A stretch of 64,000 bases of DNA, taken from the sequence record OP745616, one strand, 5' to 3'. Below are positions 1 to 42,600 of the stretch, one piece after another (the first letter of the stretch is position 1; each line of letters begins with the position of its first letter). The DNA is from Escherichia phage E20. The notes under the pieces are model-generated. The model made no database searches and had not been told where the DNA came from. It was given only the letters and a program-made list of their open reading frames with translations. A program made the translations under genes and the position numbers.

Positions 1-18
1 CCACCTTACACGTTACAC

Positions 19-31
19 GTTGCTCCGCAAC
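19..31 (+). promoter_or_regulatory. Putative virion-RNAP (vRNAP) early hairpin promoter, copy 1: GTTGC-TCC-GCAAC followed by CTATGGACATG
   Basis: 5-bp stem/3-nt loop hairpin (loop TCC on + strand, GGA on template strand) with conserved downstream GGA(T/C); three copies precede early gene blocks; matches the known N4 vRNAP hairpin-promoter architecture. Confidence 0.6.
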
Positions 32-74
32 CTATGGACATGTCGTCCTATCATCAACTATTGGAGCTATCATC

Positions 75-398
75 ATGACTACTACCGCTACTGTACGTAT
101 GACCGCAGGAACTTTACTTGGTACTGTTAACTCTGCTGCTACTACTGTTGCAGATACATTTGGTACTGCTACTAAAGCAGTAGGTATGCTTAACTCATAT
201 GTATCTACTATGGCAGAGAAACAAGCCATTCGTACTAAATTAGAAATGCATACATTCGTAAACAAATTAGCTGAAGAAACAGCTATGAACGAGACTATGC
301 GTAAGAAAAGTATCGAAGAATTCTGCAAAGATTCAGAGAACGCTCGTATCTATAACGCAGAATATTCCAAAGTAATCGACATCCTGACTAAAGACTAA
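75..398 (+). CDS. Hypothetical early protein (107 aa)
   Basis: First ORF after hairpin promoter 1; followed by a rho-independent terminator. Confidence 0.5.
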   Translation: MTTTATVRMTAGTLLGTVNSAATTVADTFGTATKAVGMLNSYVSTMAEKQAIRTKLEMHTFVNKLAEETAMNETMRKKSIEEFCKDSENARIYNAEYSKVIDILTKD

Positions 399-405
399 AT
401 CAATA

Positions 406-431
406 GGAGACTCTTCGGAGTCTCCTTTTAT
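406..431 (+). terminator. Rho-independent terminator (GGAGACTC-TTCG-GAGTCTCC + TTTTA)
   Basis: Perfect 8-bp GC-rich stem, tetraloop, T-run. Confidence 0.7.
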
Positions 432-683
432 AAACATTAGATAGATAGTCTATTTTGCATAAAAAGTTAAAAGAGAATCCTACTATGAGCAAACTAGAAA
501 ACGCATTTATCCTGACTGTTTGTGTACTTGCAATTGTTACTTTGGTTTCCATTCACATTGGGAAACCTCTGGTAAATACTGACTATGGCAATGGTCAAAA
601 AGTAAAATCCATCTTGCTAATGGATAAGTAAAAACCGCTGTTCCACAGCTTACGGATACATTTCAACCAATTAGGAGACATCC

Positions 684-899
684 ATGCACACAGAAAATAT
701 CCGTATAATTGAGAATTGCTTTAGTAACAAACCAGTAGACCTCAGCAACGCAAGAAGGTCTACTGATAAAGAGTATGGAGAGTTTCTATCCTTACTCGAT
801 GAGTATCGTATGCAAGGGCATGTTGAATTACATGCCTATCTGCATAACTCAGGCTACTTCATGGATAAACTGGAATCTGAAACAGGCTGTCCATTCTAA
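684..899 (+). CDS. Hypothetical early protein (71 aa)
   Basis: ORF with AGGAGA ribosome-binding site a few nt upstream. Confidence 0.5.
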   Translation: MHTENIRIIENCFSNKPVDLSNARRSTDKEYGEFLSLLDEYRMQGHVELHAYLHNSGYFMDKLESETGCPF

Positions 900-950
900 G
901 TAAACAATTCCCTCTTAAGAGGGAATCAGCACAGAGTGCTTAAAACCAGG

Positions 951-963
951 GCTGCTCCGCAGC
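951..963 (+). promoter_or_regulatory. Putative vRNAP early hairpin promoter, copy 2: GCTGC-TCC-GCAGC followed by CTTTGGATG
   Basis: Same hairpin and flank as copies 1 and 3; lies upstream of ORF 1076..1459. Confidence 0.6.
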
Positions 964-1075
964 CTTTGGATGATTTATGCATCCACTAATCATTGAAATC
1001 TTAAGTCTTTTCTTGGGTTTAGTCACCGACGGACAAACCCATAAATCAAACAATCATTTATCTGGAGAGTACAAA

Positions 1076-1459
1076 ATGTCTATTCAAAAATTCACTTTCG
1101 GTCAATCTAACCCTGCTGCTACCACTGAAACTAAAACTGCTAAGCCTAAAGCTCAGTTCTGGTTGAACATTGGTTATATTGCTAATGAAGGCTCTGAAGA
1201 TGAGAAGTTCATCTCTCTGCCTACTGGTATTCCACTGGATACTCAGGAACCACTGCCTACTAATAGCAGCAATGCTGACTTCCGTGCTATGCGTTGTGCA
1301 CAGAACGACTTGCTGGAACAGTTAATCGAATATGCTCAGAACCTGGAACCAGGTGAAGAAGGTATCATTAACCTGCAAGTTCAACTACGTCGTGTGAAAG
1401 CAGAGGCTGCTGACATCCCAGCAGACGAGAATAAATATGCTCGTAAACTGACTTTCTAA
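1076..1459 (+). CDS. Hypothetical early protein (127 aa; ORF track gives 977 as longest start)
   Basis: In-frame ATG at 1076 preceded by GGAGAG RBS; downstream of hairpin promoter 2. Confidence 0.5.
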
Positions 1460-1468
1460 TCAACAACT

Positions 1469-1497
1469 GGACTCCCTTCGGGGAGTCTTTTATTTTT
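1469..1497 (+). terminator. Rho-independent terminator (GGACTCCC-TTCG-GGGAGTC + T-run)
   Basis: GC stem, TTCG loop, TTTTATTTTT. Confidence 0.7.
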
Positions 1498-1602
1498 AAC
1501 TAGACGATAAGCTATTTCTACTTTTTGAGTATCTTTAGACGAAGGGTACTGAAACAGTAACCAGATAGATATAGATTTATATTAGATGAAGGAGTAACCA
1601 CT

Positions 1603-1899
1603 ATGCGTACATTATGTAACCGTTATAACTCACAAAAGTTGATTGATACGTTGCAACCTTGGGGTAGTAAGATGTCACTGAATGCTCGCTGGCAGGTAAG
1701 TGTAAAAGATGAAAACGGTCACTGCTATGACCACTTCTTTGTAACTAAACCTACTCGTAAACAAATCCGTAAACTTCACAATGTGCAAAAACATTACCTA
1801 TCACAAAAATGCTATGAGTGTGGTAAGAGAATAGAACTAGGTAAAGAATTTACTTTTGATGATCTCAACTATGCTCACACTGACTGCCTGAAAGGATAA
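1603..1899 (+). CDS. Hypothetical early protein with Cys/His pairs (possible zinc-binding), 98 aa
   Basis: RBS GAAGGAG upstream; CYDH...CYECGK...HTDC pattern. Confidence 0.55.
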   Translation: MRTLCNRYNSQKLIDTLQPWGSKMSLNARWQVSVKDENGHCYDHFFVTKPTRKQIRKLHNVQKHYLSQKCYECGKRIELGKEFTFDDLNYAHTDCLKG

Positions 1900-1903
1900 G
1901 ACT

Positions 1904-2122
1904 ATGCTGGACTTCATTGCGTTTGTAATACTCTGCTCTGTACTGTATCGCCTGCGTGGTTACATCCTCAATGGAGCCAAGTGGGTAAGAACTAAGTTGG
2001 TACTTATCTGTAAGTTACCCGTTGTATTCGTTAAGTGTCTGTTTGCTTCCATAGTAGCTAAAGAAGTTCGTAAGCAACTCTGGGCTAAAGAAGCAGAAGA
2101 GTTTGCAAAGAGGAACCAGTGA
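1904..2122 (+). CDS. Hypothetical small protein (72 aa)
   Basis: ORF in tight early operon. Confidence 0.4.
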   Translation: MLDFIAFVILCSVLYRLRGYILNGAKWVRTKLVLICKLPVVFVKCLFASIVAKEVRKQLWAKEAEEFAKRNQ

Positions 2123-2415
2123 TATTCACTAACATTGAGGATGCCATTGAAGAATGTATCTTCCGTAGATATCACACTGGAGTACAGAAGCGACACTATG
2201 GTGTTGTACAGCTCAATGGTTATCAAATGGCTGTAAGAATTGTACGTAACAATAAACCTTTTAACTTTATGTGGAGTACTAAACATGCGTAAGTCATTAA
2301 TCATGGGAACCAAAGCTGACGTACAGAAGATGAAAGAGCGTCTGGCTGCTAAGCAACAGACATCTGAACCAGTACGTAAGATTGTTACCTTCAACCATCC
2401 GTGCATAAAATAGTA

Positions 2416-2453
2416 AGGAGTCCTCCAATAGGAGGCTCCTATTTTTTATTTTT
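2416..2453 (+). terminator. Rho-independent terminator
   Basis: AGGAGTCCTCC-AATA-GGAGGCTCCT stem-loop then ATTTTTTATTTTT. Confidence 0.7.
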
Positions 2454-2490
2454 GAATAGTTAGTTATGTATTTAAATAGGAGAAAGAGCC

Positions 2491-2805
2491 TTGAATGAAA
2501 TAGTATGTATACTTCCTCACTTAGCTAAAGTAGCTGACAGGAATATACGGGTACATTTACCCTTCCCATTAAGTAATCCATTCACTCGTAATGAAAGAAC
2601 CACAGTAGAAGATATAGAGGTAGCTTATGAGGCTTATCTTCGTAATCGTCTTATTAGTGGTGACAAATTAATTACAGCAGAGATGGAAAGGATTGCATCC
2701 TTTGTCACAGATAGTACTAAGAAACCTGTTGGTTTAATTGGTACTGAATCTGATGTTAACGTTATTCGTAAAATATTAATGGAGGCTTTAGGTGAACAAC
2801 CTTAG
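2491..2805 (+). CDS. Hypothetical protein (104 aa)
   Basis: ORF; start codon uncertain. Confidence 0.4.
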   Translation: MNEIVCILPHLAKVADRNIRVHLPFPLSNPFTRNERTTVEDIEVAYEAYLRNRLISGDKLITAEMERIASFVTDSTKKPVGLIGTESDVNVIRKILMEALGEQP

Positions 2806-3025
2806 TGATGTAATAGTAGGTAATGAAATATTCGTTAACCGAAAAGGTTATGCACGAATTAAGCTAAAGAGTACTAACAGAACTATTGTTCGTAAGGTGT
2901 ACTCTAAACCTTTTAGTAATTTCTCTATTGATGAGGTGCGTATTAATAACAAAATGTACCTCATAGATAGTAAAGTATCTGTATGCCATACAGACGGTAA
3001 AACCTCACTTGAATATGCTTATTAA
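2792..3025 (+). CDS. Hypothetical protein (77 aa)
   Basis: ORF overlapping previous stop. Confidence 0.4.
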   Translation: MNNLSDVIVGNEIFVNRKGYARIKLKSTNRTIVRKVYSKPFSNFSIDEVRINNKMYLIDSKVSVCHTDGKTSLEYAY

Positions 3026-3037
3026 GGAATAAACAAA

Positions 3038-3259
3038 ATGTTGTTCAGCACTAATTATGGTATTTGCCCGATTTGCAATAAAGGAAGAGGAGTTGCTAAT
3101 CATAAGAAGTGTAGTCGTATCCTACAGAAACAACGGAACCAGGAAGAATGGGATAAGTTGTTAAATAATCAGCATAAAGAAGAGAACCAACAGATGGCTG
3201 TTAAGGCATCTACTCAACGTATTCGCCGTATTAACTATATACAGGGGTATCAGAAATGA
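3038..3259 (+). CDS. Hypothetical small protein with CxxC zinc-ribbon-like motif (73 aa)
   Basis: CPICNKG...HKKC pattern. Confidence 0.45.
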   Translation: MLFSTNYGICPICNKGRGVANHKKCSRILQKQRNQEEWDKLLNNQHKEENQQMAVKASTQRIRRINYIQGYQK

Positions 3260-3612
3260 AACTAATTGTAGCTGGGGGACGTGACTTCACTGACACCAAT
3301 CGTATGATTGCTGAATTACAGAAGCTAGTAGAATCAGGTGAAATAACTGATTCACCTGAACTTGTATGTGGTATGGCTCGAGGAGCAGATATGCTTGCAT
3401 ATAGTCTCTGGGCTAATAACCGTATGCCTATCCACAACTTCCCAGCAAACTGGAATAAGCATGGAAAGTCTGCTGGTTATAAACGTAATCAGGAAATGGG
3501 TGAATTTGCAGATGCTGCTGTATGTTTCTGGGATGGTAATTCCAAAGGAACCAAGCACATGATTGATATCATGAATAGGCTTAATAAACCTGTATACATT
3601 GTGAGGTACTGA
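3256..3612 (+). CDS. SLOG/DUF2493-like Rossmann-fold protein (118 aa)
   Basis: MKLIVAGGRDF ... GMARGADMLAYSWA ... CFWDG pattern typical of the DprA/LOG-like phage family. Confidence 0.5.
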   Translation: MKLIVAGGRDFTDTNRMIAELQKLVESGEITDSPELVCGMARGADMLAYSLWANNRMPIHNFPANWNKHGKSAGYKRNQEMGEFADAAVCFWDGNSKGTKHMIDIMNRLNKPVYIVRY

Positions 3613-3870
3613 GTGATTATTACATTCCCTGTAACTAAATCATTTAACTATATGGGACAAACTATTGAAGTCCCATTATGGGTTAAATATGTAGCATTAT
3701 TACCTCGTCCTCAGAAAAGCAAGAATGCCTCACTAATTGGATTTAGTAGAAAGCCTAAGCTAACCGAAAACTGTATTTGGAAGTCTAGTGGTAGACAAGA
3801 GGAAATTGGTTTTTGTGACTATGTGCTTCAACCAAATACAGTATATCTAACTCTGGAGAAAGTAGAGTGA
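3613..3870 (+). CDS. Hypothetical protein (85 aa)
   Basis: ORF, GTG or ATG start. Confidence 0.4.
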   Translation: MIITFPVTKSFNYMGQTIEVPLWVKYVALLPRPQKSKNASLIGFSRKPKLTENCIWKSSGRQEEIGFCDYVLQPNTVYLTLEKVE

Positions 3871-4187
3871 ATAACATTGTAGTAGTACATGATAATACAT
3901 TTACTGATGTCGATAAGATGATGCGTAATATTGATTACGTATCTCAGACTAGTAAAGCATTCAATGAAGAGTTCACTATTTACTGTGAACCAGAGTCACC
4001 ACTGGTTCCTGTATTAAAGGAAGCAGGTCTACCGTTCTCTACAGAGAACTTCCCAGAAGAACCAGAGTACATGATTACATTCATATATGACTTACATGAT
4101 GGCTCACATGCCAGTGAACTAGCCATGAACCAATGGCGTAGTAAACGTCCTGTATTCGCATTTCAGGTACTTAAACCAAAGGATTAA
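3867..4187 (+). CDS. Hypothetical protein (106 aa)
   Basis: ORF with overlapping stop/start. Confidence 0.45.
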   Translation: MNNIVVVHDNTFTDVDKMMRNIDYVSQTSKAFNEEFTIYCEPESPLVPVLKEAGLPFSTENFPEEPEYMITFIYDLHDGSHASELAMNQWRSKRPVFAFQVLKPKD

Positions 4188-4191
4188 TCAA

Positions 4192-4551
4192 ATGAAAGAG
4201 ATATTCGTATTCACTACTAACACATTAGGTCAGCATACCAATGCTGCTGCCAAGTTAGCCTATAAGAAGCATGGTGCTCGTTGGGGTATGGCCTATGGTC
4301 ATTATGGTAATAGCTTTGCCATTCCAGTAAGAGATGGCAATGGTAACCGTATCAAAGAGGGTGCTATTTATGGCTTCATTGAAGGTTTTATTGCCTATGC
4401 GTCTACTAATCCGCAGTGGGATTTCAAAGTCATGAGTAATGACTATCTGGACCCATACCAATTCATTAATGTAACTGGCAATGTACTGTTACCGGAAGCA
4501 TGGCGTAAACACTTAGGTGATGCTTACAACTACTGGGGAACATTCTCATGA
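4192..4551 (+). CDS. Hypothetical protein (119 aa)
   Basis: ORF. Confidence 0.45.
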   Translation: MKEIFVFTTNTLGQHTNAAAKLAYKKHGARWGMAYGHYGNSFAIPVRDGNGNRIKEGAIYGFIEGFIAYASTNPQWDFKVMSNDYLDPYQFINVTGNVLLPEAWRKHLGDAYNYWGTFS

Positions 4552-4808
4552 CATATGAAGAACTATGGGCTGCTCAGGTCAGAGCCAGAGCACTCACACG
4601 GCATGACATCTATTGTGCATTGCAGAACGAATTAAAAGGTCGTACTAAGCTAGGTCACATATCAGGTTTAGTTAAAATACCTATGCGTAGTCTAGTATGG
4701 CCTTATCAGAAAAAAAGTAATGAATTTAACGGTAATGGTTTATATGTACGTATTAACTACCTTGGTCAAGAGAACAGTATTCGTATTGCCTTTTGGACTA
4801 AGCGGTAG
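4548..4808 (+). CDS. Hypothetical protein (86 aa)
   Basis: ORF. Confidence 0.45.
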   Translation: MTYEELWAAQVRARALTRHDIYCALQNELKGRTKLGHISGLVKIPMRSLVWPYQKKSNEFNGNGLYVRINYLGQENSIRIAFWTKR

Positions 4809-4814
4809 GCAATA

Positions 4815-4827
4815 GCTGCTCCGCAGC
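4815..4827 (+). promoter_or_regulatory. Putative vRNAP early hairpin promoter, copy 3: GCTGC-TCC-GCAGC followed by TTGAGGATG
   Basis: Identical 13-nt hairpin to copy 2; upstream of ORF 4842 and the RNAPII genes. Confidence 0.6.
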
Positions 4828-4841
4828 TTGAGGATGTAATC

Positions 4842-5072
4842 ATGGCAGTATCCATTCAGGAAATCATTGTTAAAAGGCACAAGAGAAAATGGGAAAGCTA
4901 TTACAAGCTAAAAGAGGTAATTAATGCTGCTTACCTTAGTGAAGAAGGTTATGCCTGGGTTGAACTAAATAGTGTATGGCCTTGGAGACATAACATCTAT
5001 ACAGACAGTTTAATCATATTCTACAGCTATGCGAATGAGCATAGTGGTAGGCGTCTAATTGCAAGAATGTAA
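4842..5072 (+). CDS. Hypothetical protein (76 aa)
   Basis: First ORF after hairpin promoter 3. Confidence 0.45.
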   Translation: MAVSIQEIIVKRHKRKWESYYKLKEVINAAYLSEEGYAWVELNSVWPWRHNIYTDSLIIFYSYANEHSGRRLIARM

Positions 5073-5094
5073 TTAACTAATTGGAGAATATGCG

Positions 5095-5913
5095 ATGTAC
5101 TCATCAATAGAACATCAGAAGCAGCTTGAAGTCCTATTCAATAAAAATCAATTACTGCCTCGCATGAGGAAGGAATTCGAGGACTCCAAAGAAATTGACT
5201 TTAAGGCATTCGCTGCCTATTTAGAAATTGATTATAAGCTGCTCATTGATGCAATGGTGCAGATTGCCCTACATAAACGTGCTGACATCCAGACTATGAT
5301 TGGCTCTCTCATGAGTCACTCAGATGATGCTCAGTACATCGCTGACTGTCTATATAAGATGGCAGAGAATGACTGCTTCAACTATGACCCTACCATCGAC
5401 AAATTCGGTGTTATCTATGAGATTAGTGAAGATGTTCAGATGGAACTGGAAGCATTCCAGTATCCATTACCTATCGTAAGTGCTCCTAAGCCTGTTCTGT
5501 GTAACCGTGATACAGGTTACTACGAAAGCAGAGGCAGCATCATCCTCAAGAAGAATCATCATGAAATGGACGTCTGCCTTGACCACATCAACCGTATGAA
5601 CAATCAACGTCTCTGTATTAACTGGGACGTTGCCAACTATGTAAAAGACTCTCGTCCTAACATGGATAAACCCAAAGAGGGGGAAACCCGTCAGGACTAT
5701 GAGAAACGTGTTAAAGCCTTTGAGAAGTACAGTCGTACTGCTAAGGAAGTAATGGAGTTAGTAACTCAAGAAGGCAATAACTTCTCACTAGCACATAAGT
5801 ACGATAAGAGGGGCAGAACCTATGCCTGTGGATACCATATCAATTTTCAAGGGACTTCATATAACAAGGCAGTGATTGAATTTGCTGATAAGGAGCTGGT
5901 AAACGATGATTAA
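5095..5913 (+). CDS. RNAPII N-terminal (small) subunit of a split T7-like RNA polymerase (N4 gp15-like), 272 aa
   Basis: Size and position immediately upstream of the catalytic subunit; N4 RNAPII is a heterodimer of roughly 270 and 400 aa. Confidence 0.65.
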   Translation: MYSSIEHQKQLEVLFNKNQLLPRMRKEFEDSKEIDFKAFAAYLEIDYKLLIDAMVQIALHKRADIQTMIGSLMSHSDDAQYIADCLYKMAENDCFNYDPTIDKFGVIYEISEDVQMELEAFQYPLPIVSAPKPVLCNRDTGYYESRGSIILKKNHHEMDVCLDHINRMNNQRLCINWDVANYVKDSRPNMDKPKEGETRQDYEKRVKAFEKYSRTAKEVMELVTQEGNNFSLAHKYDKRGRTYACGYHINFQGTSYNKAVIEFADKELVNDD

Positions 5914-6054
5914 TAAACGTGCAGTAGAAGACTTCTATGCTCATAGAGAGTTGGTACTGAAACGCATCAATGAAGCAATGAAACGTGAGGCTGAAGCTAA
6001 AGCTAAGCATAACCGTAAATAAATCCAAATGCGAGCCAAGAGGACTAATCTCAA

Positions 6055-6297
6055 ATGAGTAAGCTATTAAAACTGTGGTTAATTAGCCAAAGTGAAAACC
6101 GTGGGCATGACTCCTTTGATTCTGCTGTTGTAGCAGCCTACACAGAGGAAGAAGCTAAACAAATTAATCCAGACGGAGAATGGAAACTATACACCGCCTG
6201 GTGTTCTTCACCAGATAAAGTACATGTTGAGTACCTGGGTATTGCCACCGAAGGCGTGGAACCAGGAATAGTATTGTCATCATTTAATGCTGGTTAA
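6055..6297 (+). CDS. Hypothetical protein (80 aa)
   Basis: ORF between the two RNAPII genes. Confidence 0.45.
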   Translation: MSKLLKLWLISQSENRGHDSFDSAVVAAYTEEEAKQINPDGEWKLYTAWCSSPDKVHVEYLGIATEGVEPGIVLSSFNAG

Positions 6298-6351: not shown

Positions 6352-7569
6352 ATGCAACTGTTAACTGCCCGTGAATACCTGAAAGTAGATGTCGCTAACA
6401 ACTATGGCTTAGATAAAAAGACATGGGATGAACGTATTAGCTGGTTCGATGAGAACGAAGCTAATCTGCTCAATCTGGTAGATGAAGCTGAAGAATCTGC
6501 ACTGTTCTATGCTGGTGTAAACGCATGGAAAGATATGAAAGCTGGTAAGCCTATTGGTTATGCCGTAGCTCTGGATGCTACATCATCTGGCTTACAGTTA
6601 CTGGCTTGCCTGACTGGTGACCGTTCTGCTGCTGAACTGTGTAACGTAGTTAACTACATGGGCAAGAATGGTAAGCCATTACGTCGTGATGCTTATACAG
6701 TTATCTATCATAAGATGCTGGACATCCTTGGTGAAGCATCTCGTATTAAACGTAGTGACACCAAGCAGGCAGTTATGACTGCATTCTATGGTTCAGAAGC
6801 TAAACCTAAAGAAGTATTCGGTGAAGGTATCCGTCTCAAGACTTTTGAGAATGTAATGGAAACTGTTGCTAGTGGACCTTGGGCATTGAACAAGTTCTTA
6901 CTGCAATGTGGTAACCCAGACGCTAACCGTTATGTATGGGTATTGCCTGACAACTTCCATGCTGTCATTAAAGTTATGGTTCCTGAAGTACAGACTGTTA
7001 ACTTCTTAGGTAAGCCATTCGACATCACTCGTATGGTCCAAGGTACTGAAGAGAAGACCCGTATGCTCTCTGCTAACATCACCCACTCTATTGATGGGAT
7101 GGTAGTACGTGAGATGCTGCGTCGTTGTAACTTCAACATGAACCAGGTGAACTATATTAAGTCCCTCTGTGAGGGAACCAGTGAATACATGGTTGGCTCT
7201 GATGATAACTATGAAATGGTTAACACACTGTGGTCTAACTATGAGAAGTCGGGATTCCTGTCTACCCGTATCTTTGATTATCTGGACTCTGAAACAATTG
7301 CATTGGTTGATACAGATGTAATCATGGCTATGCTCAATACCATGCCTAAGAAACCATTCCCTGTAATGACCGTACACGACTGCTTCCGTTGTCATCCTAA
7401 CTACGGTAATGACCTGCGTCGTCAGTACAATCAGATTCTGTCTGACATTGCTAAGAGTGACCTACTGGGCTTCATCCTGTCTCAGGTACTGGGACAAGAG
7501 TTCTCTGCTGGTAAGCTGGATGACAGCCTTTGGCAGGACATCCTTGAAACAGATTATGCATTAAGTTAA
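6352..7569 (+). CDS. RNAPII catalytic subunit, T7-like single-subunit RNAP palm/fingers (N4 gp16-like), 405 aa
   Basis: T7 RNAP motif A-like DATSSGLQ, motif B-like RSDTKQAVMTAFYGS, motif C-like TVHDCF. Confidence 0.85.
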   Translation: MQLLTAREYLKVDVANNYGLDKKTWDERISWFDENEANLLNLVDEAEESALFYAGVNAWKDMKAGKPIGYAVALDATSSGLQLLACLTGDRSAAELCNVVNYMGKNGKPLRRDAYTVIYHKMLDILGEASRIKRSDTKQAVMTAFYGSEAKPKEVFGEGIRLKTFENVMETVASGPWALNKFLLQCGNPDANRYVWVLPDNFHAVIKVMVPEVQTVNFLGKPFDITRMVQGTEEKTRMLSANITHSIDGMVVREMLRRCNFNMNQVNYIKSLCEGTSEYMVGSDDNYEMVNTLWSNYEKSGFLSTRIFDYLDSETIALVDTDVIMAMLNTMPKKPFPVMTVHDCFRCHPNYGNDLRRQYNQILSDIAKSDLLGFILSQVLGQEFSAGKLDDSLWQDILETDYALS

Positions 7570-7575
7570 TAAACT

Positions 7576-7611
7576 GGCCTCATACCTTCGGGTATGGGGC
7601 TTTTATTTTTT
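7576..7611 (+). terminator. Rho-independent terminator
   Basis: GCCTCATACC-TTCG-GGTATGGGGC then TTTTATTTTTT. Confidence 0.7.
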
Positions 7612-7613
7612 GC

Positions 7614-7811: not shown

Positions 7812-7840
7812 CCACCCTCAAGGGTGGCTTTCTTTTTTAT
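7811..7840 (+). terminator. Rho-independent terminator
   Basis: GCCACCCT-CAA-GGGTGGC then TTTCTTTTTT. Confidence 0.7.
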
Positions 7841-7885
7841 CAGCCTTCATAATGATTAGGCATATTTACTCAAGAGGATACATAC

Positions 7886-34291: not shown

Positions 34292-34364
34292 TACCCGGTA
34301 GGCTTAGTGGCAAAGCCCCACTAGTAAACTAACTAGGACGCAGGTTCGAATCCTGCCCGGGTAA
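34292..34364 (+). tRNA. tRNA-like gene; canonical acceptor, D and T arms, but anticodon loop folds as 6 nt
   Basis: Perfect 7-bp acceptor TACCCGG/CCGGGTA, D-arm GGCT-TAGTGGCAA-AGCC, T-arm GCAGG-TTCGAAT-CCTGC; anticodon stem CTAGT/ACTAG with loop AAACTA. Confidence 0.45.
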
Positions 34365-34373
34365 TCATACTAT

Positions 34374-34447
34374 GTCCACTTAGCTTAGACTGGGAAAGCA
34401 ACCGACTAATAATCGGAAGGTCACTGGTTCAAATCCAGTAGTGGACA
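34374..34447 (+). tRNA. tRNA, anticodon AAT by hand fold (would read Ile codons if A34 modified); needs tRNAscan confirmation
   Basis: Perfect 7-bp acceptor GTCCACT/AGTGGAC, D-arm GCTT-AGACTGGGA-AAGC, anticodon arm ACCGA-CTAATAA-TCGGA (C32 U33 ... A37 A38), T-arm ACTGG-TTCAAAT-CCAGT. Confidence 0.55.
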
Positions 34448-34683
34448 CCCATTCAGCAGTAACATAGTCCTGATTGCATAGCACTCTAAAGACAACACTG
34501 GTAAGACAGTCCAGTGGCTGCTAATGTATTGTTATTCCCCTCGACGGGAATTTCGCTAGTGAAGGTAACACTTAAAAATCCAAACCTACGTCTTACTACT
34601 ATCGGGCTATCAACCCACGGTCGCTTAACCCACTAGTGGTAGTAGTTTGACGGCCTGCCTCGTTGACTGCGTTAAAGTCACTA

Positions 34684-36635: not shown

Positions 36636-36666
36636 AGCCCCTCCTTTGAGGGGCTTTTTTATTTTA
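36636..36666. terminator. Bidirectional terminator at the convergent junction of plus-strand genes and minus-strand late genes
   Basis: AGCCCCTC-CTTT-GAGGGGCT flanked by A-rich upstream and TTTTTTATTTT downstream; overlaps vRNAP stop. Confidence 0.7.
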
Positions 36667-39600
36667 GTTTACTAAGTTCATCCAAGGGTTCAGGTTGTGA
36701 GCACGAAGACCCTGACCAAAGCCCCAAGAGTAATCCAGACTACCCTTAGCAGCAATACTAAAGATGTTGTCCTGAATAGGTAAGCCAACGTTACCAAACA
36801 TGGTAGGGGTTGGAGCCAGCATCGCCATTGCTGCATGAACCGGGTTGTTACGAATCATGGACACTGCAACCTTAGCTGAACGAATCTTAAAGTTGTAGAA
36901 CCACATCAAACCAACACTTTCCATATACCCACGGAAGCGACCTGGTAAACGGTCATAGTTAACGAACTCTTCCGTTACACGTCCCAGTGCTTCTTCACGA
37001 GTCTTACCTTTACGCTGAGTCAGTTCATCATAGATGATTGCTTTAGCGATGAAGTCGGAGTACTCAACAGTCTTCTGGATACCCTGGAACAAAGCAGTAT
37101 CCTTAGTGATAAGTGCATAACGACCAGCAGTACGTACAGACTTAGGTAATTTATCAGCCAGCTTTTCCATGTATTCGTGAAGTTTGCCCTCAGTAATCAA
37201 GATGTCATCACGACCAATACCAGCATCTGCAATTGAAGAGAACTCACCTGCTTCTAACAGAGGCCAGATACTCATACGCTTATGGCTATCAGTAATAGAC
37301 TGAATTTCAGCCTTAAGTTTACGAATCTGGTTCGGGTTAGTAGCTGCACGTAATTCTGCTTCTGCATCTACCTGACGCAGACGAGATTTAAGATACTGGT
37401 TAATCTCAGCAGTTTTCTGTGGAATGCTCTTAGCAATATTCTTAACAGGTACACCACGAGCAACCATCTGGTAAAGGTTAGCCAAGAAGTTAACAGCAGG
37501 TACGACTACTGACTTAACTACAATCAGCGTCTTAGCTTCTTTAACTAAGTTTTGAACCAGGTTCTCACCACCCATTGTGTACTTATAAGCACGGTTGCCA
37601 AATACACCCAGCATAGCTTTCTTGAAGGTATCCAATGTTTCCGGGGACCAACGAGAATTACCTGACCAGGCATCTCCAACGGAAGCTGCACGATAACCTA
37701 GTGCATCATTCAGCATGTCACGACGTACCCACAGTTCACCTTCACCGAACAAACTCTCTGCTTTCTGGCGTGTTTCACTATTCATCAGCTTAAGAGCATC
37801 AGCAGTTACTGGGTCCAGTTTAGAACCAAGAAGGTTAACGTACTGGGACTTATTAGCAGAAGACATCTTAATGTCATTCTCATACATGCTATGCAGGTTC
37901 TCAATCAGCATATCGTTGAAACGCTGAGCCTTAGCTTCTTCCACCTGACGACCACGCCATACACCTATTGCACGGGCAAGATGGTTTTCACCTTCAATGT
38001 GTTTCAGCATGTTAGGGTCAATGGATTGTTCATAGGCAACCACATTACCTTTATCGTCATATACAGGCATCAGTGGTTCATTACCACGTTCCCCACGAGC
38101 CAATGCTTTAGTGATACGGTCTACGGAAGGCTTGTCAGTAATACGACCAGCTACCATGGAACCCATCGTAAAACCTGTGCCGATGTCTACACCACCAGCA
38201 GTATTGCGAACGTTTTGTAGGATACCCTGTGAGAAAGGAGCTTGTGCCTGTACCGGTGCAAAATAGTAGCTACGTGCTGGACCACGATTAGCGGAGCTAC
38301 CTTGATAAGTACCCAGACGTACATAGGACTTCTCAATCAAATCACCAAACTGACTATCTTCAGCAACAATCAGATTAACACCTTGTTTAGTCTCACTCGG
38401 GATATGTCCTTTGTACTGGTTCAAGGTTGCACGCATATCAGATTTGGCTTTAGCCATTTCATCTTTACGCTGACCAACCAGGTAAGAAGTAGCAAAATCC
38501 ATTCCATCAACTTCTGATTGAGCCAGTGAAGATAACATCTCACGGTCGGACTTGTTCATTGCTTCCAGTGCATACAGGGTAATCAGCTTATCCAGTTGAG
38601 CTACATCTACAGTAGAACGAGCAGCCTGACGTTCGCCCAGCATACGGGAGATTGCAGTAGCATTACGCAGCAGGTTATTACCGACTGTACCGTTAATCAT
38701 GAACTGAGCCAGTTGCTTAGATTTACGACTAATCAGAGGCCAGTTACGGCCTGCTTGTTTCTGTAAATCTGCTTCCAGCTTATTCACTTCACGGTCAACA
38801 ATCTTCTGGTCAGACAGCAAGTCACGGATTTCAGCCAGAGACATGGTGTCACGCAGAACAGCCAAATCAGTTTTACCCATACCAGTGTGCATTGCTTTCC
38901 ACTCATCGTTAGTCAGCTTACGGCTGAACTTAGATGCGATAGTGGTAGGCAGATGTTCACGGAACTGCTGACGATCTGCCTGCACCTGTGCACGCACTGC
39001 TTTAATCAAATCGTATACAGAAGCATTACTCTTAGTACGACCAGTTAAGTCATTAACCAGGTCATGGAAAGGTTGCCATACCTTACCCTGGTTCATTGCA
39101 GCCATAACACCTTCAGCTACGATTGCACCATTCTTCTCTGTAGCAATAGCAGCTATCAGTTGTGCAGCATGAGCAGCACCTTTGACCAATGGATTCTTGG
39201 TATTAGCTGCAACTTCACGAGCACTTTCTAAAGCACGGGTAGACAGTGCATCAATAGAATCCACCAGATACTGGTTAGAACGGTCAATAGCATTACCACT
39301 AGGAGTAGCAACAGAATCATATAATGACTGTGCATTGAGGCTAGTCTGCATGATTGTTTGAGCCAGTGCATCCATACCTTCCTGTACGTTGGTAGCTTTA
39401 GTGTCACCTGCTACACGGGCATTCAAGCTAGACATTGCAGCAGTACCGATGTTAGTCAGCATTGCATCAATGGTATTCCCAGATTTCTTATCTGCTTTCA
39501 TAACAGGAATGTTAGCCAGTACGTTACGTACTTCTTCGCTTACCATTGCCAGACCAACAAAGGTAGGCAGTAAGGAAGAACGACCCTGTGCGTCAAACTC

Positions 39601-42600
39601 AATATTGTTAGCACCCATGATGGTATCGAACTTCTGCTGAGCATAGTAACGGTCAGCTGGGTTAGTGCTATCCGGGTCAGCCATGAATGCTTCAACTGTC
39701 AGGTTCTTAGTAACGTGTGCATAGTATTCCTGTGCCCGAGAAAGAGCAGCCGGACTAATAGCAGCTTCAATAGCCAAAGCAGCAACGATATTAGTGAACA
39801 GGCGTTGTTCCTGCATATTCATAGTAAAGCCATGAGCCTGAACATCACGGGTTACTTTAGTTGCATTCACTACTGCATCAGAGAACTTACCTTTACGAAT
39901 TACTTGCTGTACTGGTTCAGAACCAATGTAGTTAGTAATCAGTTTGTCAAAAGTCTGTCCCAACTCTTCCAGACGGATATTGTCACCATACGCCTTGTTA
40001 TGGAACAAGGTAGTGTCTTTGGATACAGCAGCCGTAGGAGCCTGTCCACGCATAACTACAGAAGAGTTAAACAGCAAGCCGGAGAACATATCATCTGCAT
40101 TAGCAGGTGCTTTCTTACGACCAAATACCAGACGCTTGATTGCCTCATACACAGACTGAACCATAGTTTTCAATGCAGTGGTTTTCTTCTGCTTACCAAT
40201 CAGTTCACGGTTGGTTAAACCCCAAGCCATATACTCATTCAGTGCAGCAGCTTTAGCCATTGCAGGTTCAATAAAGCCATTAGACAAGTGACCGTTAATG
40301 GTATTGAGAGCATCAGCATATGCTTCACGTACTGCCGGGGATTCATTCTTAACATCCAGAGTACGGAACTGGTTCATCAGGTCTTCAATATTCTGAACTG
40401 CTTCATTAGGAGTACCCTCATAGTGAGCCAGTACAGATTCAAAAGTAGAAGCATGTACTAATTCATGAACCAGAGTCTCTAAGGAAGGGGTAACTAAGTA
40501 GATGGTCTTATCATCAAAGTTAGTCCAGCCATATGCATTACCAGCTTCGGCAGCTTCAATATCTTCTGGTGCTGGGCGAGTAATGTTCTTCTCAATAGCA
40601 TAAGCATCCAGTTGAGCAGGAGTACCGTAAACAACCTTGTAGTCTTTAGCAGCAAGGGATTTCTGTACTTCTTTCAATACTGCTTGCTGTTCAGGAGACA
40701 TCTCTTTAGCCAGCCTAGTGATAGCAGTATTGGACAGCATACGTACACCAGACTTCAGTACACGACCAACCTGTTCCATTGCTGGTACTTCTTTAACAGG
40801 TACTTCTTTCACTGGTTCTGCTTTAGCAGCACGTACTGCATCGCGACGCTTGTTTAATTCAGCATCAAACAGTTCGTTCAGCTTAGCTACTTGCTGGTCT
40901 ACAGTCAGACCTTCCAGAGAGATTTTACCGTTGTTCACATAAGGAGCACCCACAGCAGCCATCTGATCAACAGTGGTCTGTACCTGGTTCATTACTTTGT
41001 GGCGAATATCTACACCCAGAGCAATGTTACGCAGGTTACGTTCAATAAGGTTAACACCGGAATTCTTAATCATATCAATCTTATACTGCCTGTCTCCCTC
41101 AACACGACTGATATGAGAAAGCTGTTCAAAATCCAAAGCAGAACGGGCAATGTCATCAATTGTCTTATCCGACAACTTATTAAAGTCTACGTTCTTCATG
41201 AACTTAGAGAAGGAGTCATAAACATTCTTGATAGGATTACCCTGCCAAGAAGTATATACAGCCTCATTAGCTTTACGGCTTGCATCAGTGATGTCATTGA
41301 TACCAATGTTCATACCATCAAAGATTTTCAGGGTATTCTTCGGTGCACCTTTCATAGTAGAAAGGGTCTGCATCATCATGCCATCACCAGTACCAATGGT
41401 CATAAATGGAATACCTGCAACACCTGCTTGTGAAGGAGCATAGACGCTCATTGGCACACGCATACGGTCATCTAAGTTGGTAGCCAGTACTTGGTTAGCA
41501 ACATCAGTATTCTCACTACCAGCAATGTAGAAAGTTTGTGAGCCAGTCTCAATCATTGGAGCCAGTGGAGATAATGATTCCTGGATTTCATTAAGTTCTT
41601 TCTGCGTTAAGAAATCGCCCTTCTTCCAGGTTGGGTCTTTTTCTTTTTCTGCTAGTTTAGCCTGTACTGCTTGTTGGAACATATCCTGCAATACTAAAGA
41701 CTGAATTTGAGTAGCCTTCTGCAAGTTCTCAGTGGAGTGCATCAGACCTTCACCAACAGTGAACCGGATACTTTGTCTCATTGGTTCAACGAAGAAGTGC
41801 AACATATTCTCTTGTAAGTTCTTAAGGGCATCACCAGATACAGTAAACTCCTGGGGATCTAACTCACCAGTCAGAGCACCATCTACCTCCTTAATAAATA
41901 ACTTACCTTTACGCTTGGCTGGAATTTTACCAGTCAGTGCTTCCATAGAAGTAAGGAAAGTATCCAGCATAGCCTGAGCATCCGCTTCAGACGCAGCCTC
42001 CTTACCAAACATTGCCATAGCTGGGGAAATGCTAGGGTCAGCAGCACGTGCTTGCAGAACGTCACTGAGGCGTTCATAGATGGTATCAGTAATTGCACTA
42101 ACCATCTTGCCAGCAATACCACGAGCACCAGAACCATAGATGGTAATGGTCAGTGGGTTTTTAGCTATACCACGTTTCAGGTCCAGAGTACCGTCTTCAT
42201 TCAGGTTAAAGTCTTTAATGAACAGGTCCATTAACTTCTGGAGATGATTCATCTGGCTCATAATCGGAACGTTGTTACGGTAAGCACTACGTAATTCATT
42301 TAGATAGAATTGCAAACTATTGGTAGATGCTTCATATAAGTCAATGCTGTCATCATATGAATGATGTTCATTCATAGTCTTACCGGCTTTACCGAAGAAC
42401 AAGCCACCCTTAGCAGTATTCTTAATCCAATTTTGGGTGAACTTACCACCAGTCATTAATACCATTGCGTTGATTGGGCCGTTGGTTACACCATCAGCTT
42501 CGACATACAGTGGGGTATTAAAGTTGGCACGGTCATCGCTGTTCAGGTAACGGGCATATTCCATCAGAGCCATGAGAGCTACAAAGGATTTGTTATCACC

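Follow-up and report, generated by a model that had tools for sequence, protein, structure and literature searches.

A left-end block of small genes in Escherichia phage E20, probably transcribed by the virion RNA polymerase of a G7C-type N4-like coliphage

We consider it highly likely that positions 75-5072 of the window, the 64,000-nt stretch of Escherichia phage E20 analyzed here (record OP745616), form the left-end region that vRNAP transcribes in an N4-like coliphage of the G7C type. The block holds 17 close-packed small genes, all on the + strand (~88% coding). By sequence homology, two of them (75-398 and 1076-1459) clearly encode counterparts of the N4 RNAPII cofactors gp1 and gp2, and three others (SLOG, gp9 and gp14) are linked to superfamilies tied to NAD+/ADP-ribose chemistry, with a predicted role in the processing of immune signals. 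The ten remaining genes are without assignable function, and comprise two that encode CCHC zinc-knuckle proteins, two that encode small hydrophobic proteins and six others. The region is real and of a known kind, already sequenced in N4-like coliphages, and its interest is modest.

The dense block of small genes reported in the preliminary description is real, with ORFs at the coordinates claimed there and all on the + strand. Its count of about 15 proteins was too low, since 17 CDS are annotated in the 99.9%-identical GenBank record OP870143.1, and the size range of 60-160 aa was set too high at its lower limit, three products being shorter than 60 aa; the ORF translations give products of 42-127 aa, the upper end rising to 160 aa with the long form of gp2. 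Start/stop overlaps, each of 4-14 nt, occur at six places between block genes. PHROG family matches were obtained for 16 of the 17 genes (E 1e-16 to 1e-60), and the 17th (4842-5072) has full-length homologues of 43-46% identity in five other coliphages (tblastn), so the block ORFs are genes and not chance ORFs. No match to a housekeeping family was found among the block ORFs, and none of the 17 proteins matched a PADLOC model. The block is essentially the sequence of Escherichia phage vB_Eco_F22 (Gamaleyavirus, Schitoviridae; 99.9% DNA identity over 5.2 kb). Related phage records for this 5.2-kb region number 83, and the Gamaleyavirus relatives G7C, SP5M, St11Ph5 and 24-32N cover only 66-90% of it, in 3-9 pieces.

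The N4-like character of the region, also claimed at the outset, is borne out by a vRNAP ORF within the window, by hairpin promoters and by RNAPII genes directly downstream. The vRNAP candidate is a 3,610-codon ORF on the - strand (36664-47496), assigned by its PHROG match to the 'virion RNA polymerase' family. The RNAPII subunit genes gp15 and gp16 (5095-5913 and 6352-7569, + strand; phrog_2166 'N4-like RNA polymerase', E 5e-116; PF00940) lie just outside the block, with two small ORFs between them and a terminator-like hairpin at ~7578-7610 that ends the unit. Gene order in the early region is co-linear with the G7C and N4 annotations.

Early promoters had likewise been proposed, and a search for the pattern GYNGYTCCRCNRC on both strands of the whole 64 kb returned four matches where 0.25 were expected, every one at the block, on the + strand and just upstream of a gene start. 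The first, P1 (19..36), reads GTTGC-TCC-GCAAC on the non-template strand, with a template loop 5'-GGA-3' and a predicted +1 at G36; the site belongs to repeat family D1, and its template strand is predicted to fold into a hairpin (5-bp stem, 3-nt loop) and carries -12A, -11G, -10G, -9C, -8G and +1C, the N4 determinants quoted in PMC4496689. Identical to the N4 P3 hairpin are the sites preceding gp2 (951..968, predicted +1 at G968) and at the position equivalent to P3 (4815..4832, predicted +1 at G4832), both GCTGC-TCC-GCAGC; the latter is predicted to drive 4842-5072 together with the RNAPII genes. The fourth is a variant (637..654, GCTGT-TCC-ACAGC, predicted +1 at G654) that is also found in G7C (L002 796-808) and deviates from two N4 requirements, its loop-closing pair being A:T instead of G:C and its -9 base T instead of C. 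All four template strands are predicted to fold into hairpins with stems of 5-6 bp and a GGA loop, and all four carry -12A, -11G, -10G, -8G and +1C; the bases that N4 vRNAP requires at hairpin promoters are given in PMC4496689.

The statement that no ORF could be assigned from sequence stands for most of the block and fails for two genes. The gp1 homologue (75..398, +; 107 aa) belongs to phrog_5020 and is 66% identical to N4 gp1 (E 7e-51) and 91% to G7C gp1, while the gp2 homologue (1076..1459, +; 127 aa) belongs to phrog_4099 and is 71% identical to N4 gp2 and 93% to G7C gp2. Although the gp2 reading frame extends back to 977 (160 aa), translation probably begins at Met34 (position 1076), giving 127 aa; the phrog_4099 model starts at residue 34, GGAGAG is found 6 nt upstream of 1076, and a 127-aa gp2 is annotated in SP5M. 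N4 gp1 and gp2 are genetically and biochemically defined RNAPII cofactors, gp1 being needed for the use of middle promoters by RNAPII (PMC4496689; on both roles see also PMC13434306 and PMC7145618). By this homology the two belong to the transcription program and are not host-takeover or anti-defense genes. On the N4 model, injected vRNAP, together with host gyrase and SSB, would fire the hairpin promoters during entry of the left end into the cell. Each from a promoter of its own, gp1 and gp2 would be made in quantity and would act with gp15/gp16 to turn on middle transcription, and the 15 remaining genes would be accessory cargo expressed via read-through.

Terminator-like sites were enriched (13 versus 3.6 +/- 2.0) and sigma-70-like sites depleted (7 versus 19.7 +/- 4.3). 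A terminator-like palindromic hairpin follows gp1 (405..426, +; AGGAGACTC-TTCG-GAGTCTCCT, then TTTTAT), a strong intrinsic-terminator-like hairpin follows gp2 (1469..1488, +; 8-bp stem, then TTTTATTTTT) and another follows gp6 (2422..2435, +; then CTCCTATTTTTTATTTTT); SP5M carries annotated terminators at the matching places. The genes of 1603-4808 lie behind two strong terminator-like hairpins, and the GYNGYTCCRCNRC search found no hairpin promoter between 968 and 4815, so that their 'early' status depends on assumed read-through. It is possible, if doubtful, that the genuine vRNAP-transcribed early genes are only gp1, gp1.2, gp2 and the 4842-gp16 unit, most of the block not being 'early'; in that case RNAPII would, with the same doubt, transcribe the 14 genes of 1603-4808 as middle genes, using AT-rich promoters within the post-terminator spacers. 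Both the missing hairpin promoters and the strong terminator-like hairpins at 1469-1488 and 2422-2435 fit such an arrangement, as do the AT-rich spacer of 55-115 nt that precedes the next gene after each of these terminators and the N4 RNAPII promoters, which are short and AT-rich and lie in the genome's left half (PMC4496689). However, no shared promoter motif was found across the post-terminator spacers, and terminators are extensively read through in the N4-like phage LUZ7, in which gp01 and Drc, the gp2 analogue, make up ~90% of early transcripts (PMC9163698). Early transcription of the whole block by vRNAP is the reading we retain.

Most of the small genes have close counterparts in G7C, which has homologues of 12 of the 17 block proteins, eleven at 81-100% identity and a twelfth, matching 1603-1899 in its N-terminal part, at 66%. 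Between gp1 and gp2 lie a gp1.1-like gene (485..631, +; 48 aa; phrog_26357, E 8e-36; 81% to G7C gp1.1), whose product has a single hydrophobic segment, AFILTVCVLAIVTLVSI, and probably spans the membrane, and a gp1.2-like gene (684..899, +; 71 aa; phrog_20790, E 3e-51; 94% to G7C gp1.2) with no Pfam match. The two proteins described as Cys-rich and zinc-ribbon-like, 1603-1899 and 3038-3259, hold one CxxC...HxxC (CCHC) set each. The former (+; 98 aa) has a DUF7279 N-terminal part (PF23945, E 3.4e-9) that resembles G7C gp2.2; phrog_7840 matches residues 1-60 and phrog_25572 residues 69-98, and the zinc knuckle (C70/C73/H92/C95) is a C-terminal extra that the 61-aa G7C gp2.2 (66% identity across 59 aa) does not have. 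The latter (+; 73 aa; phrog_6887) is gp9.1-like, 88% identical to G7C gp9.1, with an N-terminal knuckle read from the translation as C10/C13/H22/C25. Also homologous to G7C proteins are gp2.4 (2119..2292, +; 57 aa; a PHROG family member; 100% identity), gp6 (2285..2413, +; 42 aa; 95%, and 62% to N4 gp6) and gp9.2 (3613..3870, +; 85 aa; phrog_1972; 99%). The gp11 homologue (3867..4187, +; 106 aa; phrog_7827; 71% to N4 gp11) is kept across N4-like coliphages and gave no match in Pfam, NCBIfam or PDB searches.

Five block genes are missing in both G7C and N4, namely the SLOG gene, 1904-2122 (+; 72 aa; phrog_13158, E 2e-41), whose product has a hydrophobic N-terminus and is probably a membrane protein, 2792-3025 (+; 77 aa; phrog_10124), 4548-4808 (+; 86 aa; phrog_14487, E 1e-59) and 4842-5072 (+; 76 aa), which sits between the P3-type promoter and gp15, has a narrow distribution and matched nothing in PHROG and Pfam searches; part of the block therefore turns over quickly. 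Conversely, G7C has an HNH endonuclease, gp2.3, gp11.1 and the DUF4326 protein gp12, none of which is present here. Several genes without assigned function are swapped between close relatives. The likeness to N4 lies in the left-end position, the hairpin promoters, whose template loop is GGA, and the order gp1, gp2, gp6, gp9, gp11, gp14 and then gp15/gp16, the shared proteins being 47-74% identical; four cargo genes (gp6, gp9, gp11 and gp14) are held in common. In contrast, N4 has three hairpin promoters (P1-P3) and the present phage four, with the extra variant at 637; N4 gp3, 4, 5, 7, 8, 10, 12 and 13, of which gp8 is a replication inhibitor (PF25713), have no homologues here; and the present block has extra genes, that for the SLOG protein among them, carries a 76-aa gene separating gp15 from the P3-type promoter, and encodes a gp14 that has lost its conserved loops.

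The preliminary description had assigned 3256-3612 to a SLOG/DUF2493-like protein, and this call is sound: the 118-aa product (+) is a stand-alone YspA/YAcAr protein (PF10686, E 4.9e-12, with 45.9 bits where the cut-off is 28.2; phrog_289) with 3,836 database homologues, PF10686 being found on all matches listed, and its type is present in 1,151 of 50,697 phage records. The gp9 homologue (2491..2805, +; 104 aa; TTG start) is a divergent DUF4326 relative with a phosphatase-like (PTP/DUSP) predicted fold that falls below the Pfam DUF4326 threshold and contains no cysteine, the catalytic residue of the phosphatases of best-matching fold. The gp14 homologue (4192..4551, +; 119 aa) belongs to the A1S_2505 family and has a predicted macro-domain fold. 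Its Gamaleyavirus form has lost the conserved glycine-rich loops of that family, including the one after the fourth strand, which has the sequence IGCGLAG in the other family members; in the G7C-like clade an 8-residue conserved loop was lost and, afterwards, further conserved motifs. Judged by their position in the modeled fold, the lost loops would be the ADP-ribose-binding loops of a macro domain. For gp14, neither a Pfam Macro match nor a sequence link, at profile level, with macro domains of solved structure was found, and identity to DarG/TARG1-type macro domains is 9-11%.

Host-takeover, anti-defense and superinfection-exclusion genes had been expected in this block, an idea whose concrete content is a predicted one, consisting only of the fold and family links of gp9, SLOG and gp14 together with a published prediction (PMC9503650). 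In viruses, SLOG, Macro and DUF4326 domains are found together or as fusions, and their predicted task is the processing of ADPr derivatives at an early stage of infection (PMC9503650; PMC7824862). Here the three superfamilies are represented by stand-alone proteins encoded within 2.1 kb, in a region presumably expressed at the start of infection, which matches the gene neighborhoods described by Iyer, Burroughs, Anantharaman & Aravind in 2022 (PMC9503650); two of the three proteins in the present block, however, are without the expected active-site motifs (the gp9 cysteine and the gp14 glycine-rich loops), and the block yielded neither a NADAR nor a Nudix partner. We tentatively propose that SLOG, gp9 and gp14 may bind or process ADP-ribose-derived host immune molecules early in infection, a reading that is plausible and well short of probable, and that is a prediction because its basis is domain context; under it, the motif-less gp9 and gp14 are more likely to be binders than enzymes.

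An unlikely alternative would place the three proteins in phage nucleic-acid metabolism and not in counter-defense, with SLOG, at similarly low probability, a DprA-like ssDNA binder and gp9/gp14 RNA- or nucleotide-end processing factors. SLOG homologues are indeed frequently annotated as DprA-like or ssDNA-binding, a SLOG-type domain belongs to an accessory helicase in ICP1, DUF4326 also occurs in fusions with components of replication and of restriction-modification systems (PMC7824862), and gp9, gp11 and gp14 are kept across N4-like coliphages, as core functions would be. Yet the SLOG gene is missing in G7C and N4 and is therefore dispensable for the basic cycle, PF10686 is grouped with NAD/ADPr-related SLOG clades and not with DprA proper (PMC9503650), and N4-like replication genes are located in the middle region. 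We regard as very improbable that gp14 and gp9 are decaying remnants without current function and that much of the block is evolutionary baggage. The loss of loop and motifs from gp14 within the G7C-like clade and the missing cysteine of gp9 at the catalytic position of its fold relatives would suit decay, but both ORFs are intact and their predicted folds confident (pLDDT 93 for gp14 and 88 for gp9), gp9 shows 75% identity per column with 33 invariant positions over 25 N4-like sequences, and the loop-less gp14 persists in sublineages that share just 63-74% identity, one cluster having 451 member sequences, all of which argues for purifying selection.

A comparison by description only is offered by ORF83 of the E. 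coli phage PhiDruSM1, likewise a small stand-alone SLOG-type (Smf/DprA-like) protein. It is reported to be anti-AVAST type III, its deletion lowering plating on AVAST III (preprint 10.1101/2024.04.14.589459), and has been modeled as an AMP binder (preprint 10.1101/2025.06.06.658234); PhiDruSM1 differs in belonging to another phage family (Queuovirinae), and the evidence on ORF83 comes from preprints only. Among close relatives of the present phage, a full DUF4326 gene was observed in the equivalent block, and the gp14 homologue is labeled ADP-ribosylglycohydrolase in one relative's record.

The block of small genes at 75-5072 represents a known type of region, found in a genome that has been deposited. 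Window positions 1-5200 match the record of Escherichia phage vB_Eco_F22 (OP870143.1; Schitoviridae, Enquatrovirinae, Gamaleyavirus) over their full length at 99.9% identity, base 293 of that record corresponding to window base 1. The same region is matched at 86-92% identity by 82 more phage records, mostly of G7C-like coliphages, which cover only 66-90% of it and do so in 3-9 separate pieces. The preliminary description had assumed an N4-like phage, and correctly so, since a 3,610-codon ORF at 36664-47496 on the minus strand matches over its central 1,100 aa the PHROG family phrog_2206, 'virion RNA polymerase' (vRNAP), with 1157 bits. The finding of a dense early block was likewise real and correctly placed: its ORFs are genuine genes, all on the plus strand, and the GenBank count is 17 CDS. 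Sixteen of the 17 proteins match PHROG families at E values of 1e-16 to 1e-60. The remaining one, encoded at 4842-5072, matched no PHROG or Pfam model; it has full-length homologues in five other coliphages (43-46% identity) and is therefore conserved at the protein level. Together, these matches and homologues rule out a reading of the block as chance ORFs. The proteins are between 42 and 127 aa long, about 88% of the block is coding, six start/stop overlaps of 4-14 nt join neighboring genes, and five genes start with GTG or TTG. In itself the block brings nothing new, being a standard early region with the transcription logic of N4, and it is of practical use for the short, well-delimited set of candidates that it offers. 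The refinements reported here, namely the naming of gp1 and gp2, the location of four hairpin promoters, a predicted macro fold in gp14 together with its decayed form in G7C-like phages, and a link between gp9 and DUF4326, are useful annotations rather than surprises.

The transcriptional organization of the block became apparent when a family of four direct repeats (D1) proved to be a hairpin motif. The 64-kb window contains four copies of GYNGYTCCRCNRC (at 19, 637, 951 and 4815), against 0.25 expected, and all of them are on the plus strand and in intergenic spacers. Folding of the template strand gave, at all four sites, a stem of 5-6 bp closed by the loop 5'-GGA-3'. With the loop center placed at -11, the template carries -12A, -11G, -10G, -9C, -8G and +1C, the bases reported to be recognized by N4 vRNAP (PMC4496689), and the predicted +1 is a G in every case. 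All four sites thus have the properties by which we defined an N4-type DNA-hairpin promoter, that is, a 5-7-bp stem, a 3-nt loop, and in the template a purine at -11, G at -10 and -8, and C at +1. The hairpin of N4 promoter P3 is identical to those at 951 and 4815, and that of P2 has the same loop as the window hairpins. The site at 637, which is conserved in G7C, deviates in its A:T loop-closing pair and in a T at -9, because of which it may be a weaker promoter. Outside the window, about 100 nt to the left of its base 1, the F22 record carries a fifth copy of the hairpin motif close to its extreme left end (191-203), inverted relative to the others and thus on the minus strand. The predicted +1 positions at 968 and 4832 (GGAUG...) fall just 9-10 nt 5' of in-frame ATGs at 977 and 4842; if both ATGs were used, the mRNAs would be near-leaderless, with the 5'-terminal GGA as their sole Shine-Dalgarno-like element.

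Sigma-70-like sites are depleted in the block (7, versus 19.7 +/- 4.3 in shuffled sequences) and terminator-like hairpins are enriched (13 versus 3.6 +/- 2.0). Such hairpins follow gp1 (405-426), gp2 (1469-1488, then TTTTATTTTT) and gp6 (2422-2435, then a T-run), and terminators are annotated at the same three sites in the Gamaleyavirus SP5M. The T-runs that follow several plus-strand terminator hairpins (1487-1497, 2440-2455, 7600-7612 and 7830-7845) have the common AT-rich form TTTTATTTTT or TTTTTTAT. Promoters and hairpins divide the block into a first promoter serving gp1; a small gene (485-631) downstream of the first terminator-like hairpin; the 637 promoter serving gp1.2 (684-899); the 951 promoter serving gp2; a stretch of five genes (1603-2413) and another of nine (2491-4808), neither with a promoter of its own; and the 4815 promoter serving a 76-aa gene, gp15, two small ORFs and gp16, a unit that ends at a terminator-like hairpin at about 7.6 kb. 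The genes at 1603-4808 are thus without a hairpin promoter and are preceded by strong terminator-like hairpins. They could be middle genes transcribed by RNAPII, the phage gp15/gp16 polymerase, although a survey of all plus-strand intergenic spacers up to 37 kb yielded no convincing middle-promoter motif common to the sequences that follow the terminators. We prefer the reading that vRNAP would express them by read-through, because N4 early transcription has been mapped to the genome's leftmost 10% (PMC4496689) and because terminators are read through in the N4-like phage LUZ7 (PMC9163698).

The statement in the preliminary description that no ORF could be assigned a function was wrong for two of the 17, which are homologous to the N4 RNAPII cofactors and can now be named as such. 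The product of 75-398 shares 66% identity with N4 gp1 and that of 977/1076-1459 shares 68-71% with N4 gp2; the RNAPII subunit genes follow downstream at 5095 and 6352, so that the window encodes both cofactors and the split polymerase (gp15/gp16). Between the subunit genes lie two small ORFs, at 5906-6022 (38 aa), which gave no match, and at 6055-6297 (80 aa), which matches phrog_5444. The provision of gp1 and gp2 each with a dedicated promoter and terminator fits measurements in LUZ7, where about 90% of the early transcripts are those of gp01 and of Drc, the analogue of gp2 (PMC9163698). The label 'RNA polymerase subunit A' attached to gp2 in the F22 and G7C records is a misnomer, because N4 gp2 is a single-stranded DNA-binding cofactor and no polymerase subunit. 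The annotated 160-aa form of gp2 is also probably over-extended at its N-terminus. Judged from sequence features, translation is likely to begin at Met34 (position 1076), giving 127 aa: the PHROG model starts at this residue, GGAGAG lies 6 nt 5' of 1076, gp2 is annotated in the short form in SP5M, and the ATG at 977 would have a leader of just 9 nt from the predicted +1 at 968. The frame upstream of 1076 is nevertheless open in N4, G7C and the window phage alike.

We compared the rest of the block with the early proteins of G7C and N4 by BLASTP. Six genes are held in common with N4 (gp1, gp2, gp6, gp9, gp11 and gp14), and six further ones have counterparts in G7C but not in N4. Neither phage has the remaining five (1904-2122, 2792-3025, the SLOG gene at 3256-3612, 4548-4808 and 4842-5072), which are marked as recently exchanged cargo, the class in which anti-defense genes are usually found. 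Conversely, the block lacks the HNH endonuclease, gp2.3, gp11.1 and gp12 of G7C, as well as gp3, 4, 5, 7, 8, 10, 12 and 13 of N4. A replication inhibitor of the N4 gp8 type was rejected: N4 gp8 matches PF25713 at 1.1e-18, and no window ORF matches either this family or, by BLASTP, N4 gp8 itself. The pair of proteins described as zinc-ribbon-like (1603-1899 and 3038-3259) does have one CxxC...HxxC set in each translation, the former consisting of a DUF7279 part similar to G7C gp2.2 and an extra CCHC knuckle. Hydrophobic segments seen on inspection of the sequences of the products of 485-631 and 1904-2122 are suggestive of membrane insertion. For gp11 (3867-4187), gp6 (2285-2413), gp1.2, gp2.4 (2119-2292), gp9.2 (3613-3870), 2792-3025, 4548-4808 and 4842-5072, 'accessory gene of the early region' is the proposal, with nothing more specific. 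The labels 'Antirepressor' (gp11) and 'NrdA-like' carried by related GenBank records were set aside, as no search here reproduced them. Searches of the PDB gave nothing meaningful with the single sequences of gp1, gp2, gp11, gp14 and the SLOG protein, or with profiles of the gp9, gp14 and SLOG families.

Three proteins of the block can be related, by family or predicted fold, to ADP-ribose chemistry. The SLOG/DUF2493 call for 3256-3612 stands, the protein matching PF10686 (YspA/YAcAr family) with an E value of 4.9e-12 and 45.9 bits against a gathering cut-off of 28.2. Its motifs (GG after strand 1, GMARGAD, RN and GxSKGT) are invariant in 20 relatives. The protein has 3,836 homologues in the database, with PF10686 precomputed on all 120 of those listed; it was found in 1,151 of 50,697 phage records, spread over many host genera, and is sometimes fused to helicases. 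Neither kind of PDB search found a solved relative by sequence.

Structures were predicted for two proteins, gp9 and gp14. The former (2491-2805) shares 74% identity with N4 gp9 and is strongly conserved in N4-like phages, with 33 invariant positions among 25 sequences. It falls below the Pfam threshold for DUF4326 (PF14216; 15.3 bits for the window protein and 21.8 for N4 gp9, cut-off 25) and aligns to the N-terminal two-thirds of the model only. A gp9 family profile retrieved just 13 relatives from 1.84 billion representative proteins; among the ten that were run through Pfam, seven are clear DUF4326 members (E values of 1e-15 to 5e-21), one passes (1e-10) and two lie at or below the cut-off. 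BLASTP also links gp9, at 1.5e-6, to a true member of DUF4326, the N4 protein gp12. The DUF4326 family consensus includes a cysteine-containing C-terminal motif. This motif is missing from gp9, which has no Cys after residue 6 and carries VGLIGTESD at the strand-turn-helix where DUSPs have their catalytic Cys; gp9 is a divergent relative, probably non-catalytic or differently catalytic. Its detectable homology to bona fide DUF4326 proteins and its shared fold class agree with the published assignment of DUF4326 to the rhodanese-phosphatase superfamily (PMC9503650).

The second predicted structure, that of gp14 (4192-4551), points to a macro fold, macro domains making up 11 of the 13 best matches in a fold search. 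By sequence, the protein shares 47% identity with N4 gp14 (4148-4528 in the N4 genome) and belongs to NCBIfam NF049995, 'A1S_2505 family phage non-structural protein' (E value 2.4e-24), the only NCBIfam match in the block. Pfam gave no match, Macro included, at E<0.1, and the gp14 profile found nothing relevant in the PDB, so membership of Macro is not established by sequence models. In a viral structure library the gp14 fold recurs as a domain within giant proteins of crAss-like phages, one of which bears the name 'ART-PolyVal-like domain-containing protein', and annotated phage macro proteins rank lower with weak scores. A homologue in the GenBank record of the Gamaleyavirus 24-32N is already labelled 'ADP-ribosylglycohydrolase'.

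Of 41 members of the gp14 family, 36 keep the consensus motifs (FVFGSN.AG.HGAGAA, AIPTKD and TRIGCGLAG). In the window protein TTNTLGQHTNAAA stands in place of GSN.AG.HGAGAA, and the second loop is lost through an 8-residue deletion; the protein thus lacks the putative glycine-rich ADP-ribose-binding loops. All five G7C-like sequences have the same 8-residue deletion, which removes RIGCGLAG, and four of them, the window protein included, have also lost GS, HGAG and TK. Given where they lie in the predicted topology, we infer that these are the two ADP-ribose-binding loops of macro domains. With both loops deleted or decayed, the window gp14 is probably a macro-fold protein that would no longer bind ADP-ribose as N4 gp14 may. 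The natural series, from intact motifs (N4-like) through deletion of loop 2 only (P0007) to deletion with decay of loop 1 and TK (F22 and G7C), suggests a stepwise loss of an ancestral activity in the A1S_2505/gp14 family, and a comparison of intact (N4) with loop-less (G7C, F22) gp14 could address the function of this widespread macro-like phage family.

The three genes thereby gain testable, fold-based hypotheses around ADP-ribose chemistry, the most concrete of which predicts counter-defense against NAD+/ADP-ribose-based immunity for gp9, SLOG and gp14. In viruses, SLOG, Macro, NADAR and DUF4326 domains are reported to occur together or as fusions, often encoded in early regions, with the predicted task of processing ADP-ribose-derived immune signals or toxins (Iyer et al., PMC9503650; PMC7824862). 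Three of these superfamilies have one member each in the window, all within 2.1 kb, and close relatives have a full DUF4326 gene in addition in the same block. In the coliphage PhiDruSM1, plating on AVAST type III is reported to drop when ORF83, which encodes a small SLOG protein of Smf/DprA-like type, is deleted (preprint, 10.1101/2024.04.14.589459), and a second preprint models the ORF83 product as an AMP binder (10.1101/2025.06.06.658234); the likeness of ORF83 to the window SLOG protein is one of description. Against the hypothesis count the loss of expected active-site motifs in two of the three proteins and the fact that none of the 17 matches a PADLOC model. That gp9, the SLOG protein (YspA type) and gp14 in its loop-less form would make up a joint early counter-defense set of G7C-type phages against NAD+/ADP-ribose immunity, with the two motif-less members as former enzymes turned non-catalytic binders or decoys, is in our judgment unlikely; if true, the immunity neutralized could be, for example, Thoeris-type cADPR signals, DarT-type DNA ADP-ribosylation or AVAST III.

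Elsewhere, the middle region of the window contains two adjacent tRNA genes on the plus strand (34292-34364 and 34373-34451), both above the Rfam tRNA threshold; the anticodon loop of one is odd (ARAGORN 'tRNA-???'), and the other is read as tRNA-Ile (aat).
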